A stretch of 13,680 bases of DNA from Candidatus Thorarchaeota archaeon (GTDB lineage Archaea; Asgardarchaeota; Thorarchaeia; Thorarchaeales; Thorarchaeaceae), in the NCBI GenBank assembly GCA_003345595.1, contig PRDI01000095.1, positions 1 to 13,680 on the forward strand. Reading direction: 5' to 3'. The stretch's first letter is position 1. Every line of letters begins with the position of its first letter. The translations under genes were made by a program, and so were the position numbers. This document shows positions 1,736 through 12,333 of the stretch, piece after piece. The notes under the pieces were generated by a model. That model was not told the DNA's origin, made no database searches, and saw only the letters and a list, made by a program, of their open reading frames with translations.

Positions 1736-1811
1736 TGGAGCCGGCTAGGGGAATTGCACCCCTGTGGAAAGGATCTGCAGTCCTTCGCGTAAGCTACTCC
1801 GCCAAACCGGC
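1736..1811 (-). tRNA. tRNA-Cys (GCA), intron-less, CCA encoded
   Basis: Minus strand: GCCGGTT TG GCG GAGTAGCTTA CGC G AAGGA CTGCAGA TCCTT TCCAC AGGGG TGCAATT CCCCT AGCCGGC T CCA. Complete 76-nt cloverleaf with anticodon GCA, G37 and the U73 discriminator typical of tRNA-Cys. Confidence 0.96.
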
Positions 1812-3082: not shown

Positions 3083-3122
3083 GTCTTAAGACAAGGGCAA
3101 TCTTTGCAGACGCGTTTTTATG
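3083..3122. promoter_or_regulatory. Divergent promoter region for the TPR gene and cysS
   Basis: Palindrome GTCTTAAGAC (3083-3092) has a TATA-like core placed for the TPR gene. TTTTTATG (3115-3122) is placed for a cysS transcript starting near 3145. Confidence 0.4.
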
Positions 3123-3155
3123 TACTCTTTGGAAGACACACATCGGGTTCCTGAC

Positions 3156-4589
3156 TTGATACATGTGTTCAACACGCTTTCCCGGTCAAAGGAAGAGTTC
3201 ATGCCGCTTGACGGAAAGAACGTCCGCGTATATGTATGCGGGCCCACTGTATATGACTATCCACACATAGGCAATGCTAGGTCGTTCGTCGTGTTTGATA
3301 CGATAAGGCGCTACCTAGAGTACAGCGGATATAGGGTTCATTTCATCACTAACTTCACAGACGTGGACGACAAGATGATTGCCCGAGCCCACGACGAAGG
3401 CATTGCGGTCGCAGAACTTGCCGCGAAATTCATCGCAGAATATCAGCGAATTGCTAAGGAACTGAACCTGAAACCGGCGAATGCCAACCCAAGAGCCACA
3501 GAACATATCGATGACATGGTTGACATGATCAAACGAATCGTGGACAACGGTACGGGTTATGTTGTCGATGGGAATGTCTACTTCGACGTGAGCGCGTTCG
3601 CGGCCTATGGCAGCCTGTCCAAGATGCCGGTTGATCAAATGACCGCAGAGGCCAGAATAGAACCCGATGAGAACAAGCAAGACCCACGAGACTTCGCCCT
3701 CTGGAAGGCCGAGAAACCGGGTGAACCATCTTGGGACAGCCCTTGGGGCAAGGGAAGACCGGGATGGCATGCAGAGTGCTCAGCGATGAGCCGACACTAT
3801 CTTGGAGTTCCATTCGACATACATGGTGGAGGACAGGATTTGATATTCCCTCATCATGAAAACGAGATCGCACAGACTGCTTCAGCCTACTCGATAAAGA
3901 CTCCGGTCAAATACTGGCTTCACAACGGCTTCCTAACCATCAACAAGGAGAAGATGTCGAAATCCCTAGGCAACTTCTTCACTGCCCGCGAAGTCCTCGA
4001 TCATTACAATCACCAGGCAGTCCGCCTGTTCTTGATATCAGCTCAATATCGGCAACCGCTCGACTACAGCCCTGAAGTACTCAACCAAGCAACTCAGTCC
4101 TTGGAAAGACTTCGAAACGCACTTGACGTACTGGAAGGCAGACTGTCGTTAATAGAGAAAGGCGGCACTAAGCCAGCCCAAGCAGACTCGAAGCTTGCCG
4201 AGGCAGTCAAGAAGATCAGAGATGGATTTGAGAGGGAGATGAATGATGACTTCAATACGCCCGGGGCACTGGCAGAAGTGTTTGCACTTGTTAAGTCGGT
4301 AAATACATACGCCAGCAAAGTTGGGAAAGCCTCGGCCATAAGAGAAGCACGTTCAGCGCTGCTCGAGTTGATGAGTGTGCTCGGAATCGATCTCGAGACG
4401 AAGACGACACGAGAAGCTTCGGCGAGCGATGAGTTGTTGGGGCAGGTGGTCGATCTGCTCCTCCAAATCAGGGAAGAAGCGAGGAAGAGTAAGAACTACG
4501 CTCTCTCTGATAGGATAAGGAACGGACTCGCTGAGGTCGGCATAACAGTTTCAGACACGAAAGACGGCCCGACTTGGAAAGCAGAGTAG
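3156..4589 (+). CDS. cysS: Cysteine--tRNA ligase (class I CysRS)
   Basis: Motifs [67 protein letters not shown] and a C-terminal SDRIR...D...G..W anticodon-binding domain. TTG 3156 gives the usual (M)IHVFNTL N-terminus; ATG 3120 overlaps the TATA candidate. Confidence 0.98.
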
Positions 4590-5228: not shown

Positions 5229-6617
5229 TCACTTCTTCATAATCTGGTGCTTGACGCTTATGTACAGCCCGGCGTCTTCCAAGATAAAGACTCGCGGATC
5301 GGGATTCTCCTTCAGGAACCTCTGCATTAGCTCACGCAGAACTCGCTGCGCATCCGCCGGATTGCGAGGGTTTATGCCTTCCATCCTGTAGATGTCACTC
5401 AGCATCTTAGGATCGAGTTGGGTGACGACCTTGATGTTTCGCTCTGCGACGTCTAGCAGAATCCTGTACAGATCGGGCACTTTCTGATTCCCAATCCTGA
5501 ACGTCTTCTCAGAGCAGTAGTTCTCGATGGAGAATCTCAGCGCGTCCTTGACCTTCATATCCAAGGTAGCTTTCATGGCCTCCTCAAACGGCAAAGCACC
5601 AATACCTTCCTGACACGGGGCTAAGAGCACTATCCACCCGCAGAGGTCGTGCTTCACGGCGTTCCACGCAGCGTGGATACCCTTGCCAGCCTGATACAAA
5701 TTGATTCCCAAATCGCCGACGGACACGAACACTATGTCGGCAGGTGTATCCACATCTACGACTCTCATCTTCTTGAGGGGTGCCGAGGCCGCCTTGTGAC
5801 ACTCAATGATATCGCCGGCCTGAACGTAGACAATCTGGCCGCTGTTGATGATGGTATCAATACAGAAGATTGTCAGATGCTTCTTCATGCTCTCTGTGAT
5901 GTCAATCATGTCCTCAATCACAGGGTTGCCTTTCGTGTTGCCGAGTCTGCACTCGGGCTTGAATCCCTTCTCAAGGTCGAACATCCTTGGGTGGTTCACG
6001 CGAATTGTTTCTCTGCCAGCAACGCCTGGACAAAACAGCTTGACAGTCCCAGCCTGGCCGGCAAAATAGTGATACTCCGAGTCACTCAGAACTATCACCA
6101 GACAAGAATCCAAGACCTTTTCGTCAATCAGTATGGGCGTCCCCATTTTAGTGCGGCCCATCTCGCGATTCCCGGAGTCGGAGTCGTGTGTGATGACATT
6201 CGCCTTCCACTCCTTGTAGAGGGCCGGACCTAGCACCTTGTTCTCTACTGCCTCTGGTTTGACTGGCCCATGTGAACCACTGGCCACCATGATTCGTATG
6301 TCGTCCTTTTGCACACCTAGGGTGGTCAAGCGTGCTGCGACAAGCGGGAACAGAGCACGGGTGTGTATGTTGGGCCTAGTATTGTCATCGACGAGGACGA
6401 CGATCTTCTTCCCTTTCGAGTAGGCCTTCTTGACAACTTCGTCAAAGGGTTTCGACCCTGCAGGCCTTGCCAGGACCTGTTCCAGTTTCGTCTTCAGATC
6501 TTTGAAATCAGCCTTGTACTCTGCGACACGCAGTATCGTGAGCTTCTTTACGCTTGATGGAATGAACTCGTCAACGACCGTGGTTCCGTACTTCAGAGGA
6601 GTCTTGTGATAGGACAT
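5229..6617 (-). CDS. larA: Nickel-pincer-dependent lactate racemase family (LarA-like) racemase/epimerase
   Basis: Motifs LKYG, VDDNTRP, ASGSH, HD, HYFAGQAGTVKLFCPG, NH and NLYQAGKG match the LarA catalytic and cofactor-binding positions. Likely start ATG 6617 (MSYHKTPLKYG). Substrate cannot be determined. Confidence 0.9.
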   Translation of the reverse strand: MSYHKTPLKYGTTVVDEFIPSSVKKLTILRVAEYKADFKDLKTKLEQVLARPAGSKPFDEVVKKAYSKGKKIVVLVDDNTRPNIHTRALFPLVAARLTTLGVQKDDIRIMVASGSHGPVKPEAVENKVLGPALYKEWKANVITHDSDSGNREMGRTKMGTPILIDEKVLDSCLVIVLSDSEYHYFAGQAGTVKLFCPGVAGRETIRVNHPRMFDLEKGFKPECRLGNTKGNPVIEDMIDITESMKKHLTIFCIDTIINSGQIVYVQAGDIIECHKAASAPLKKMRVVDVDTPADIVFVSVGDLGINLYQAGKGIHAAWNAVKHDLCGWIVLLAPCQEGIGALPFEEAMKATLDMKVKDALRFSIENYCSEKTFRIGNQKVPDLYRILLDVAERNIKVVTQLDPKMLSDIYRMEGINPRNPADAQRVLRELMQRFLKENPDPRVFILEDAGLYISVKHQIMKK

Positions 6618-6871
6618 GCTGTTCCCCGCTACGGACTTGTAGGCCACGATATGTAACAGTTGTGGTCCCAACGAACGCTGGAAATCCGATCCGACAACAT
6701 GTCAGTCCGAGGGGCACTGAGAAAAAGAGGGATCAAGTTACCATGCAGGCTATCTAGGGTCGTACCAGTCGGCTATCAAGCCTGGTGTCCTTGAAGGAAT
6801 CTAGATGTCGTACTGATATGCCACGTAGCCTTCGCCAAGGTACGATCAGTACCTCAGACTGCCGCTTACCT

Positions 6872-6886
6872 CCAAAACCTTAAATC
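6872..6886 (+). promoter_or_regulatory. Candidate distal BRE/TATA promoter (P1) upstream of tfb
   Basis: CCAAAAC-CTTAAATC, with a predicted start near 6908-6909. Confidence 0.45.
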
Positions 6887-6953
6887 CAAAGTTGCCCAAT
6901 GAGCTGTAGGGGAGAGCAAGCGAAGTTACTCGGCCGATAGTGAACCATCTTTT

Positions 6954-6968
6954 CGCAAACTTTATAAG
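6954..6968 (+). promoter_or_regulatory. BRE/TATA promoter (P2) upstream of tfb
   Basis: CGCAAAC-TTTATAAG is a near-consensus archaeal BRE plus TATA box. Predicted start is near 6991-6993, about 140 nt before the tfb ATG. Confidence 0.65.
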
Positions 6969-7000
6969 CGCGAATGCGCATCTTCCCTCCTAATAAGCCT

Positions 7001-7130
7001 ATGGGAGCTAATGACGGGGCCCGTGCCCCACCTCCATGGGGGCGCCGCCATGCCAGCCGTGTTTTGGTGTATGTATGAGGATACACGAGACACTGTATTG
7101 TTCCCATCCGCAACGCCGAGGTGAATACAC
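7001..7130 (+). ncRNA. Putative structured cis-regulatory 5' leader of tfb
   Basis: Four nested stems found by eye. S1: 7001-7013/7096-7107. S2: GGGGC/GCCCC. S3: CATGG/CCATG. S4: 7059-7072/7081-7093. SD GAGGTGA at 7118-7124 and anti-SD CACCTC at 7029-7034. Confidence 0.45.
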
Positions 7131-8096
7131 ATGGCCTCAACATCTAATCGCCCCAAGAAACCAGCTGACCGAGCTCACAGCGGTTCAGGTTTCACGTGTC
7201 CGGAGTGTGGCGGACACGAAGTTGTCCAAGACCTTGAGAAAGGAGAGAGGATCTGCGCGAACTGTGGACTTGTCGTCAGTGACCACCGCATAGACACAGG
7301 CCCAGAATGGAGGGCCTTCACATCGGAGGAGAAAGACTCCCGTTCACGGGCTGGAGCACCGACCAACTACTCCATTCATGACAAGGGTCTCTCAACAATG
7401 ATTGACTGGAGAGACCACGACTCCCAGGGTAAACGATTCTCCGCCAAGAAACGTTCTGAGATCTACAGACTGCGAAAGTGGCAGATAAGGACTAGAGTAC
7501 ATAGCTCGGTCGACAGGAATCTCGCCCAAGCAATGTCGGAGCTGGATAGGCTCTCGTCACAGCTCGGGCTGACGAAAAGCATCAAAGAACTCGCGGCCCT
7601 GCTGTACAGGAAGCTCATCGTGAAGAGGCTTGCGCGCAGTCGCTCCATCGATGCAATGGTCGGAGCGGCAATCTACGCAGCGTGCCGACTCAGGATGGCT
7701 CCTCGTTCGCTTGAAGAGATATCTAGGCATTCTCGGGTCAGCAAGAAGAAGATTGGACAGCACTATAGGCTCCTAGTCGAGAAGCTCAAGCTCAGGATGC
7801 CGATATCGGACCCAGCAAACTATGTACCCAGATTCATCACAGAACTGAGTTTACCTGGTCAAGTCCAGCAAAAGGTACTCGAAATCCTTGAACAGGCAAA
7901 GAACAACAAAAGCCTCGTGACTGGGCGTGACCCCAGGGGTCTTGCAGCCGCAGCGATATATATCGCCTCTATCCTCATGGATCATCGAGTGACACAGAGG
8001 GATATCGCCGTCGCAGCAGGAGTGACCGAGGTCACAGTCAGGAATAGATACAAAGAACTGGTTCAAAAGCTTAACATCACGATGGCTGTTGAGTAG
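7131..8096 (+). CDS. tfb: Transcription initiation factor IIB (TFB)
   Basis: Zn ribbon CPEC...CANCG, B-reader IDTGPEWRAF, RAGAP...HDKGLST, two cyclin folds and the C-terminal HTH TQRDIAVAAGVTEVTVRNRYKEL. SD GAGGTGA lies 6 nt before the ATG. Confidence 0.98.
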   Translation: MASTSNRPKKPADRAHSGSGFTCPECGGHEVVQDLEKGERICANCGLVVSDHRIDTGPEWRAFTSEEKDSRSRAGAPTNYSIHDKGLSTMIDWRDHDSQGKRFSAKKRSEIYRLRKWQIRTRVHSSVDRNLAQAMSELDRLSSQLGLTKSIKELAALLYRKLIVKRLARSRSIDAMVGAAIYAACRLRMAPRSLEEISRHSRVSKKKIGQHYRLLVEKLKLRMPISDPANYVPRFITELSLPGQVQQKVLEILEQAKNNKSLVTGRDPRGLAAAAIYIASILMDHRVTQRDIAVAAGVTEVTVRNRYKELVQKLNITMAVE

Positions 8097-10875: not shown

Positions 10876-12333
10876 TCATGCTTCGGTCTCGTCTGTCCCA
10901 TCCTGTGGTTCGTTGGGCAAGCCTTCGCCGTTTTCCTCGCTCTTCTGCTCCGGCGGCCGGCCTGCCTCCTTAGTTCGTTCCGTTTCAGTGGGCATTACAG
11001 GCTTGCCAGCTTCAATAGCGGTGCGCAGCTTCTGAATCTGATTCTTGCGAGCGAAATAGAGCGCGACTATCACGCCAAGCGACAGGCCAGCCGATACTAT
11101 TGTCAGAGTCGTCTGCCACTGGCTCGCGGCGCCGCCCAACAGCTGCTGCCAAGTCACTATCAGAAAGCAGAGACCGGCGATGTTCATGGCCAATGAGCGT
11201 ATCGGAGTCTCGATCTTGGTTATTTCACTCACGTTAGTGTCCACCATCGCCGCGCCGATTACTCCGGCATTGTAGTTGTTGGACTTCGTTTTCTTTGCTA
11301 TGCGACGGATGGAGAGATTCTTCTTCTTTCCTAGGACCTTCAAGGCAGGTGTGACTCTGTCAACGAGAAGCTCCACGTATCGCCTCTTGGCCTCCTCGGT
11401 GTCGATACCACACTTCTTGCAGCGGCCGAGGCTTTTGTCCCATTTCCTCCTGCATGTGGGACACACGTCCTGCCGCCAAGCATCCGGGGCCACTTCTCGA
11501 ATCCTCTGGCGCACTATGTACTCACTTACTCCCTCTGGAGACTCAGCCTCCTCGGAATCCTTCTTCCGCTTCTTCTTGCTCAGATTCATCGTATCGATAA
11601 TTGAGAACAGCAGTGGAAGTGCTCCCAAGACTGTCAAGTTTGGCAATGAACGAATTTCTGAAGCCTTCTTCTGAATGCTTCTTACCTTGTGGGCAGTCTG
11701 GATTCCGTCGCGCAATACATTGAATCCACTCCCGAGTCCATAGACAGCTGCCGCGGTGGCAACTGTTGTGGCGATACCTGCAACAGATGTTATCACAGCT
11801 AGCGGGTCAGTTGGCACTATCAGGTAGAAGATAGCCCCGAGGTAATAGTATGGAGTCTGCCCATACTCGCGGTAGGTGAAGTTCAGAGACGCCTCGAAAA
11901 TGCCGGTGGCAAGAGAGATGTCCTCGAAACTCAGATAGTCTCCCAAGGGAATTGGTGCCTCCACCTGTGTTTCATAGTCACGAGGGAGGGTTACCCACGA
12001 GCTGTTACTTCCTGGAGCCCGCACTTCTATTGGGAAGATGGCAATCCCCTGATAGTAGAACCATATCCTGCCACTTGCGTTGAGGTCTCTGCTTCCGGTG
12101 ACGTTCAGCTTCAGTACGAGTGACATGTTCGCATGCAGATTGATCTGAATCGGATTGTAAGCAGTGGCATCAGTTATAGGAATGCCATCAAACTCGAGGT
12201 AGATCCAAAGCCGGTCATCGTGTATCCATTGCTCAGCTGGTTGAGCCCGAGTGGAAAGCGGGCTAGTCGCTAGTACCGCTGCTAGTAGAAGAACAAGTCC
12301 AAAGAGAAGAACCCTCGAATTCGGGCGTGCCAT
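10876..12333 (-). CDS. Membrane protein: signal peptide, ectodomain, hydrophobic segments, C4 Zn ribbon, HTH-like segment and C-terminal TM pair
   Basis: N-terminal hydrophobic signal ending TRA|QP. Beta-rich segment with five N-X-S/T sequons. Hydrophobic segments at about aa 177-204 and 233-246. CPTC-x10-CKKC motif, LSIRRIAKKTK, two C-terminal TM helices and an acidic tail. No family recognised. Confidence 0.85.
   Translation of the reverse strand: MARPNSRVLLFGLVLLLAAVLATSPLSTRAQPAEQWIHDDRLWIYLEFDGIPITDATAYNPIQINLHANMSLVLKLNVTGSRDLNASGRIWFYYQGIAIFPIEVRAPGSNSSWVTLPRDYETQVEAPIPLGDYLSFEDISLATGIFEASLNFTYREYGQTPYYYLGAIFYLIVPTDPLAVITSVAGIATTVATAAAVYGLGSGFNVLRDGIQTAHKVRSIQKKASEIRSLPNLTVLGALPLLFSIIDTMNLSKKKRKKDSEEAESPEGVSEYIVRQRIREVAPDAWRQDVCPTCRRKWDKSLGRCKKCGIDTEEAKRRYVELLVDRVTPALKVLGKKKNLSIRRIAKKTKSNNYNAGVIGAAMVDTNVSEITKIETPIRSLAMNIAGLCFLIVTWQQLLGGAASQWQTTLTIVSAGLSLGVIVALYFARKNQIQKLRTAIEAGKPVMPTETERTKEAGRPPEQKSEENGEGLPNEPQDGTDETEA

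Follow-up and report, generated by a model that had tools for sequence, protein, structure and literature searches.

The stretch of DNA analyzed here (the window) comprises 13,680 nucleotides (nt) of contig PRDI01000095.1 from Candidatus Thorarchaeota, an Asgard archaeon represented by a wetland metagenome-assembled genome whose nearest relatives likewise come from wetland metagenomes. Its plus strand carries tfb, which encodes transcription factor B (TFB), the counterpart of eukaryotic TFIIB. Orthologues of this gene in 16 genera share 83-92% amino-acid identity, and it is the most conserved of the four TFB genes in the source genome. The gene upstream of tfb is divergent, encodes a LarA-like protein and ends at 6671, leaving between the two genes 460 nt that hold no credible open reading frame (ORF). 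Within this region, the ~30 nt that follow the AT-rich box of the tfb promoter pair with the ~30 nt located just 5' of the Shine-Dalgarno sequence (SD), which would close the variable middle of the tfb leader into a single domain. A first-pass annotation had read the same leader as a translational switch. The features on which the analysis turns are the following.

6874-6896, plus strand: AAAACC-TTAAAT-CCAAAGTTGCC, a candidate distal promoter whose conservation is limited to the genus (alignment block of L001-L003); its promoter role is putative.
6953-6968, plus strand: proximal TFB recognition element (BRE) and TATA box, with TTTATAAG at 6961-68; present family-wide as ccGAAAgaTTTATAAg in alignments of 22 and 42 orthologous upstream regions.
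6991-6997, plus strand: TAATAAG, a degenerate copy of the family-wide TATATAAA box, which lies 18-25 nt after the TATA box in the family.
6997-7026, plus strand: 5' box, whose bases make up the 5' arm of the closing helix; most genera have GUAGCGGAAnCUGAnCGGGG where the window has GCCUAUGGGAGCUAAUGACGGGG, and the core pairs are at 6997-98, 7001-08 and 7010-13.
7001-08 and 7100-07, plus strand: ATGGGAGC and GTTCCCAT, the arms of stem S1, together with AATG (7010-13) and TATT (7096-99), as confirmed by sequence check.
7043-7050, plus strand: GCGCCGCC, local form of the conserved motif GCGCCAC, for which no pairing partner was found.
7096-7111, plus strand: 3' arm of the closing helix (UAUU, GUUCCCAU, ..GC), separated from the SD by 6 nt; across the family, the partner is found mostly between -39 and -19 relative to the ATG.
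7118-24, plus strand: SD, GAGGTGA (GAGGUGA), outside the closing helix; probability of being unpaired 0.22, equal to its null.
7131-8096, plus strand: tfb, 321 aa, with Pfam matches to the TFIIB repeat (6e-38) and the Zn ribbon (3e-17).

S1, one of several stems that the first-pass annotation had drawn in this leader, is the local copy of a helix, shared family-wide, in which the 5' box pairs over a long range with the pre-SD segment. In the window it extends to ~6997-7013/7096-7111; it is part of the minimum free energy (MFE) structure computed by RNAfold, with base-pair probabilities of 0.69-0.96, and it is conserved by compensatory change across the family. RNAalifold applied to three members of the genus places a long-range helix at the S1 columns, and the helix sequences within the genus are wholly different (AUGGGAGC..AAUG/UAUU..GUUCCCAU in the window versus GAAUU..GCGGUA/UGCCGC..AAUUC in a genus mate). 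In this alignment 90.9% of the cells are paired, compared to 30-48% when the partners are slid against each other, and both sides have changed in 5 of the 11 pairs.

The same pairing was recovered in a comparative set of 42 non-identical orthologous tfb leaders. The 5' box is more complementary to the pre-SD segment than to shuffled 3' segments (mean z -1.56, with p<0.05 in 40% of the leaders), and the signal holds among 18 genus-level representatives (mean z -1.76, t-test p 3e-5). Scanning of the partner position located a mean duplex energy of -16.0 kcal/mol only at -48 to -14, against ~-10 elsewhere in the leader or in the coding sequence (CDS). Furthermore, the complementarity is partner-specific: in 24 representatives, own partners reach -17.76 kcal/mol versus -13.06 +/- 0.69 kcal/mol for permuted ones, an advantage of 4.7 kcal/mol that none of 20,000 permutations equalled and that is accompanied by negative diagonal residuals in 23 of the 24, while the mid-leader and CDS controls of the same permutation gave p values of 0.58 and 0.92. 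Partition-function folds of the full-length leaders contain 8.5 expected long-range pairs, compared to 3.9 with the 3' segment shuffled (Wilcoxon p 8e-5); the corresponding values for the window are 12.1 and 3.5. The complementarity has its 5' limit just after TATATAAA, which is where the usual archaeal spacing predicts that transcription from the conserved TATA box starts. Among all pairings considered, compensatory change in orthologues supports only the closing, outer helix. In the alignable clade, RNAalifold finds only invariant helices, and no predicted pair has changed on both sides.

Located between the promoter and the start codon, the leader can be traced in RNA. In archaeal promoters of the BRE/TATA type, the BRE is rich in purines and precedes a TTTAWA-type box, which lies ~25-30 nt ahead of the transcript start; this usual spacing would put the start of the tfb transcript near 6988-6993, downstream of the BRE/TATA box at 6953-68. 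The TATATAAA box that follows may be either an AT-rich melting region or a second TATA box. A contig of 867 nt from a wetland metatranscriptome, with 4 differences from the window, spans 6925-7770; the leader falls within this contig and hence occurs in RNA, so that the tfb mRNA cannot be called leaderless. With a start at or before 6925, the leader seen in RNA measures at least 206 nt. The stretch 6572-6924 has no RNA contig in the same metatranscriptome, and a DNA run is continuous over 6461-7405. Contigs of this kind show no strand and do not mark the true ends of an RNA. At 6925 the contig adjoins adapter sequence, and this end and the uncovered stretch offer only weak hints to the 5' end of the transcript. 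This sole RNA contig found begins downstream of the 6874-6896 block and upstream of the proximal TATA box, which fits a second, genus-specific promoter candidate at 6874-6896. The genus-conserved block itself, AAAACCTTAAATCCAAAGTTGCC, resembles a second, distal promoter.

Several observations touch the promoter region itself. Strict TATA-like 8-mers (TTTATAWR and similar) occur within 300 nt upstream of only 15 of the 744 long ORFs with SD-like starts in the source genome (G000), and the tfb promoter is therefore unusually near the archaeal consensus for this genome. In one clade (L004, L034, L038, L039, L041 and L042), an inverted repeat, C(C)TTAG-N6-7-(C)TAGG, is conserved directly upstream of the tfb BRE and is a candidate operator for a transcription regulator. 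Approximately half of the orthologues present NTG-TAG or NTG-TAA (ATG TAG, GTG TAG, GTG TAA) at the predicted transcript start, directly after TATATAA; this would amount to a minimal start-stop but is probably a by-product of the GUAGCGG box, the NTG not being conserved. A reading of GTAGCGG as the BRE of a minus-strand TTTATATA promoter was discarded, as the insertion variants described below speak against it.

The closing helix belongs to a larger conserved module. In the family, the blocks follow in the order ccGAAAgaTTTATAAg (BRE/TATA), TATATAAA, GUAGCGGAA-n-CUGA-n-GGGG, UUCU, GCGCCAC, ~70-90 variable nt and the SD GAGAGGU. The orthologue alignment places the 5' box, GUAGCGGAA-n-CUGA-n-GGGG, directly after TATATAAA; in most orthologues GCGCCAC follows at 51-56 nt from where TATATAAA starts, and UUCU is a pyrimidine block between the 5' box and GCGCCAC. 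The copy in the window has diverged, with TAATAAG for TATATAAA, AUGGGAGC for AGCGGAAU and GCGCCGCC for GCGCCAC. Several of these blocks are conserved in at least 17 genera. A pattern combining the AT-rich box and the 5' box finds one match per genome in five of five genomes, and a sequence-only model finds exactly one match in 41 of 87 genomes and never two; all model matches that could be checked against known tfb positions lie just upstream of tfb. Genus g2 has the module in a longer leader, whereas the sister family, other phyla and the tandem tfb paralogues lack it. Many genera carry such a second tfb (70-78% identical) directly 3' of the orthologue (L004:2604-3503, L006, L013, L015, L017, L019 and others), and the region upstream of that tandem gene lacks the leader module. 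Literature searches turned up no publication that deals with a tfb leader or with start sites in Asgard archaea.

Other roles for the conserved blocks were considered and set aside. The blocks do not mark a regulon, the combination of AT-rich box and 5' box occurring once per genome and an extra match to a looser box-to-GCGCCA pattern falling inside a coding ORF; a TTCTNGCGCCAC pattern, which was mis-specified, gave counts at chance level. Spacing differences among orthologues that are not multiples of three speak against a small ORF across the module on either strand, and a T-run attenuator is disfavored by T-runs of four or longer in only 43% of the leaders, near the value for shuffles. For a hairpin presenting GCGCCAC in its loop, the best enclosing stem in 34 leaders did not surpass those obtained when the flanks were shuffled (median p 0.62, Fisher p 0.95). 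Pairing of the 5' box with internal UUCUGCGCCAC is no stronger for own partners (-10.0) than for permuted ones (-10.8; p 0.96, mean z +0.49); RNAalifold shows it in one clade only, as an invariant helix. Pairing of GCGCCAC with the Zn-ribbon codons (GUGGCG, +62 to +77) coincides with a dip in energy there and is accompanied neither by covariation (p 0.66) nor by synonymous-site constraint at these codons. Finally, neither GCGCCAC nor UUCU acts as an anti-SD, given that specific SD complementarity was not found and that the 3' arm has a single partner.

The primary-sequence conservation of TATATAAA, GTAGCGGAA and GCGCCAC, together with their near-fixed spacing of 51-56 bp, is what would be expected if the block acted as DNA. 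In that case it would consist of TATA boxes in tandem and, close to the promoter, an operator or initially transcribed sequence to which a transcription regulator (possibly TFB/TBP) binds, and the pre-SD complementarity would be incidental. The rarity of strict TATA-like 8-mers upstream of other genes in the genome (15/744) and the conserved palindrome just upstream of the BRE in one clade point in the same direction, as does a minus-strand duplex signal only moderately weaker than that of the plus strand. Covariation of segments ~100 bp apart, however, is unexpected for protein-binding sites, and the sense strand is favored (z -1.47 versus -1.12 for the antisense strand, paired p 0.02). Furthermore, four lineages (L005, L040, L043 and L053) carry a ~20-nt insertion between TATATAA/TATATAAA and the AGCGGAA box, which breaks a fixed promoter geometry after TATATAAA. 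In these lineages the 5' box stays by the downstream motifs and not by the AT-rich box, and this argues against a purely promoter-geometric role. We consider a DNA-level explanation of the whole module unlikely, while noting that a DNA-level role can be compatible with the RNA helix. The ~20-nt insertion itself resembles a degenerate tandem copy of the 5' box and can form a small hairpin, e.g. GTGATGtgattCATCAC.

A second alternative concerns the sequence of the 5' box. Of the 16 genomes that yielded a 16S 3' end, 15 have a 16S rRNA ending in ...CCGUAGCGGAAGCUGCGGAUGGAUCACCUCC. In the family-specific form of helix 45 (h45) of the small-subunit rRNA, the 5' strand and the GGAA loop match exactly what most genera carry as their box, GUAGCGGAA(N)CUG. 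Local alignment of leader 5' ends with the 16S 3' end gives a mean z of 2.4 against shuffles. The box might thus copy h45, with a KsgA/Dim1-type dimethylase or a late assembly factor binding the leader. Against this, a profile search of the genome with the module fails to retrieve the 16S end, other windows of the same contig score equally for several leaders, and we estimate at roughly 0.1 the probability that the module and 1.5 kb of 16S rRNA share a 9-mer by chance. Judged by eye, no local h45-like hairpin is kept across genera, and the window's own box has lost the match. The resemblance is not significant at genome scale and is a low-probability lead; mimicry of h45 appears very doubtful, and just as doubtful would be its more specific form, in which an h45 factor binds the box in competition with the closing helix. 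If it were true, TFB production would be tied to ribosome biogenesis in an Asgard archaeon. The h45 of the family reads CCGUAGCGGAAGCUGCGG in 15 of 16 genomes (16S 3' end, G000 contig C62:13346-13391), and its loop-closing pair is C-G where the usual GUAGGGGAACCUGC has G-C.

The remaining structural proposals of the first-pass annotation were evaluated on the window and in its orthologues. They involve a further set of features, all of whose motifs were found exactly where the annotation had placed them.

7001-7078, plus strand: upstream ORF of 25 codons, not conserved (no ATG at the aligned place in genus mates).
7016-7029, plus strand: hairpin S2, GGGGC-CCGU-GCCCC, lineage-specific.
7029-7035, plus strand: CACCUCC, an exact copy of the 16S anti-SD, lineage-specific.
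7035-7052, plus strand: hairpin S3, CAUGG (7035-39)/CCAUG (7048-52), unsupported.
7036-43, plus strand: near-copy 8-mer ATGGGGGC, confirmed by sequence check.
7059-7093, plus strand: hairpin S4, GTGTTTT (7059-65) and GTGTAT (7067-72)/ATACAC (7081-86) and GAGACAC (7087-93); the 5' half (GUGUUUU, GUAUGUAUGrGGA) is genus-conserved.
7125-30, plus strand: second copy of ATACAC between SD and ATG, confirmed by sequence check.

The annotation had assembled these elements into an ON/OFF switch of translation, in which ATGGGGGC competes with ATGGGAGC for GTTCCCAT and the adjacent CACCTC (7029-34) then covers the SD in response to a ligand or temperature. All of the sequence elements are present, the alternative fold lies only 1.3 kcal/mol above the MFE when forced, and in the window the complementarity of 7029-7054 to the SD exceeds that of shuffled versions (z -1.82). 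Moreover, predicted occupancy of the closing helix is bimodal across orthologues. The alternative pairing nevertheless has a probability of just 0.003-0.03, and that between CACCTC and the SD one of 0.01-0.15. The 8-mer copy, CACCTC and S2 are lacking in genus mates, with S2, whose base-pair probability is 0.20-0.27, being deleted or absent in L002 and L003. S3 fares no better, with a probability of 0.12 and no counterpart in two genus mates. The additional pairings proposed around the start codon, ATACAC/GTGTAT and GCCATG/CATGGC, reach at most 0.04 and are not conserved. For S4 the outcome was mixed: the hairpin is in the MFE structure with probabilities of 0.85-0.92, and its pairs are retained in the genus alignment, but no pair has changed on both sides and its 5' half is conserved in the genus only.

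Family-wide comparisons lead to the same view. Complementarity between the motif region and the SD is no greater for a leader's own SD (-8.69) than for the SDs of other genomes (-8.84) or for shuffles (mean z 0.01), indicating no specific complementarity and, for the anti-SD, none beyond composition. A second, competing partner for the 3' arm was not found, the arm having a single conserved partner. SD accessibility equals that of shuffled upstream controls (mean z +0.22 over 42 leaders; 0.22 versus 0.22 for the window), with an unpaired probability of 0.42 versus 0.36 for the null across the 42 leaders and predicted SD partners that vary between genomes. RNA thermometers hold the SD or start codon in a weak hairpin, and here the SD is as unpaired as the null and its partners are inconsistent. 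A riboswitch would present an aptamer core with covarying internal helices and a mutually exclusive pairing that occludes the SD; RNAalifold yields zero pairs in the conserved module, and no such exclusive pairing was recovered, leaving neither an aptamer-like core nor a consensus structure. Three outcomes had been named in advance as speaking against the switch: a folding energy no better than shuffles, stems that are not conserved, and a leaderless or late-starting mRNA. The first was observed, the second was observed for the anti-SD and not for S1, and the third was not observed. Switch, anti-SD and competing 8-mer are, as far as these comparisons go, features of the window sequence only, and a ligand, temperature or anti-SD switch is not indicated; we regard this reading as very improbable. 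The annotation had also failed to recognize any known RNA family, and this was borne out: Rfam 15 gave no match at gathering thresholds, and at most chance-level matches at E<=10, for the window and 13 orthologous loci.

Unremarkable folding energy raises the question of an RNA element altogether. The MFE of 6992-7140 is -53.4 kcal/mol, versus -48.4 +/- 3.9 for 200 dinucleotide shuffles (z -1.30, 25 of the 200 being as good), and the mean z over the 42 leaders is +0.09, with none below -2. These values, and the lack of RNAalifold consensus pairs in the conserved 5' module (30 leaders), are what an ordinary long spacer with chance stems in GC-rich sequence would give. Such a spacer would hardly account for the position-specific and partner-specific complementarity, for several blocks conserved in at least 17 genera, for the single-copy linkage to tfb or for the coverage of the leader by an RNA contig, and it seems decidedly unlikely as an explanation.

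We thus favor the interpretation, at a probability of roughly 55%, that the tfb leader acts in cis as an RNA element of undescribed type, one whose closing helix lies next to the ribosome-binding site. Besides the ordinary energies and the missing consensus, several points weigh against it. The genus structure was derived from the same three sequences used for counting, the strand preference is weak, and the long-range helix is not predicted in approximately one third of the full-length leader folds. In the best-alignable clade, RNAalifold prefers an invariant local helix, GCGGAA/UUCUGC. The p-values overstate significance because the leader sequences are related, and RNAduplex takes no account of competing structure. 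The transcription start site is a predicted one, and the contigs carry no information on strand or ends. Strict conservation of the 5' box sequence is unexplained by the helix alone and could reflect a DNA-level promoter constraint.

According to the favored interpretation, tfb would be transcribed from the BRE/TATA box at 6953-6968 with a 5' leader of ~140 nt, whose 5' box would pair with the pre-SD segment. The variable middle of the leader would be closed into one domain, leaving the SD and the start codon just outside the helix, and inside this domain would lie the conserved motif UUCU.. GCGCCAC, with no demonstrable pairing partner. The helix may protect or stabilize the 5' part of the mRNA and fix the geometry of the ribosome-binding site, thereby setting the amount of TFB, and a trans-acting factor (protein or small RNA) could recognize the 5' box and GCGCCAC and so give feedback. 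The output of the leader would be mRNA stability, translation or factor binding. As to its general kind, the leader is an undescribed example of a structured cis-acting mRNA leader. Sitting on the most conserved of four TFB genes, such an element would act atop the transcription hierarchy. The comparative signal yields a concrete, testable element, made up of the 5' box, the helix that closes the leader next to the ribosome-binding site and GCGCCAC as an unpaired motif. The analysis also removes an attractive riboswitch reading as unsupported.

Comparison with known systems helps to place this element. The Escherichia coli rpoS leader, in which an upstream segment engages in long-range pairing and Hfq-dependent small RNAs open the resulting stem, resembles the tfb leader in being long, in belonging to the gene of a promoter-recognition factor and in having a long-range pairing next to the ribosome-binding site. 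In contrast, the rpoS stem covers the ribosome-binding site until those small RNAs open it, whereas the tfb helix usually leaves 3-6 nt free between its end and the SD. The tfb SD is no more and no less accessible than expected, the tfb helix is not known to have a partner RNA, and the two sequences are unrelated. Autogenous operators that mimic an RNA substrate, such as those of E. coli thrS and ribosomal-protein leaders, share with tfb the presence of conserved, single-copy, gene-specific leader motifs by the ribosome-binding site. The likeness of the tfb 5' box to rRNA helix 45 would correspond to such substrate mimicry, but this mimicry is not significant at genome scale, and we know of no RNA binding by TFB. 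Riboswitches and thermometers that sequester the SD (preQ1-II, SAM-II, ROSE, fourU) also have a closing helix that abuts the expression platform. Unlike these, the tfb leader showed no Rfam match, aptamer core, conserved SD pairing or alternative partner in our searches.

Two further observations concern other parts of the window. A 485-aa ORF on the minus strand (10876-12333) matches no Pfam family at E<=0.001. A tRNA-Cys gene (1736-1811, minus strand) lies ~1.3 kb from a cysteinyl-tRNA synthetase gene (3120-4589, plus strand).

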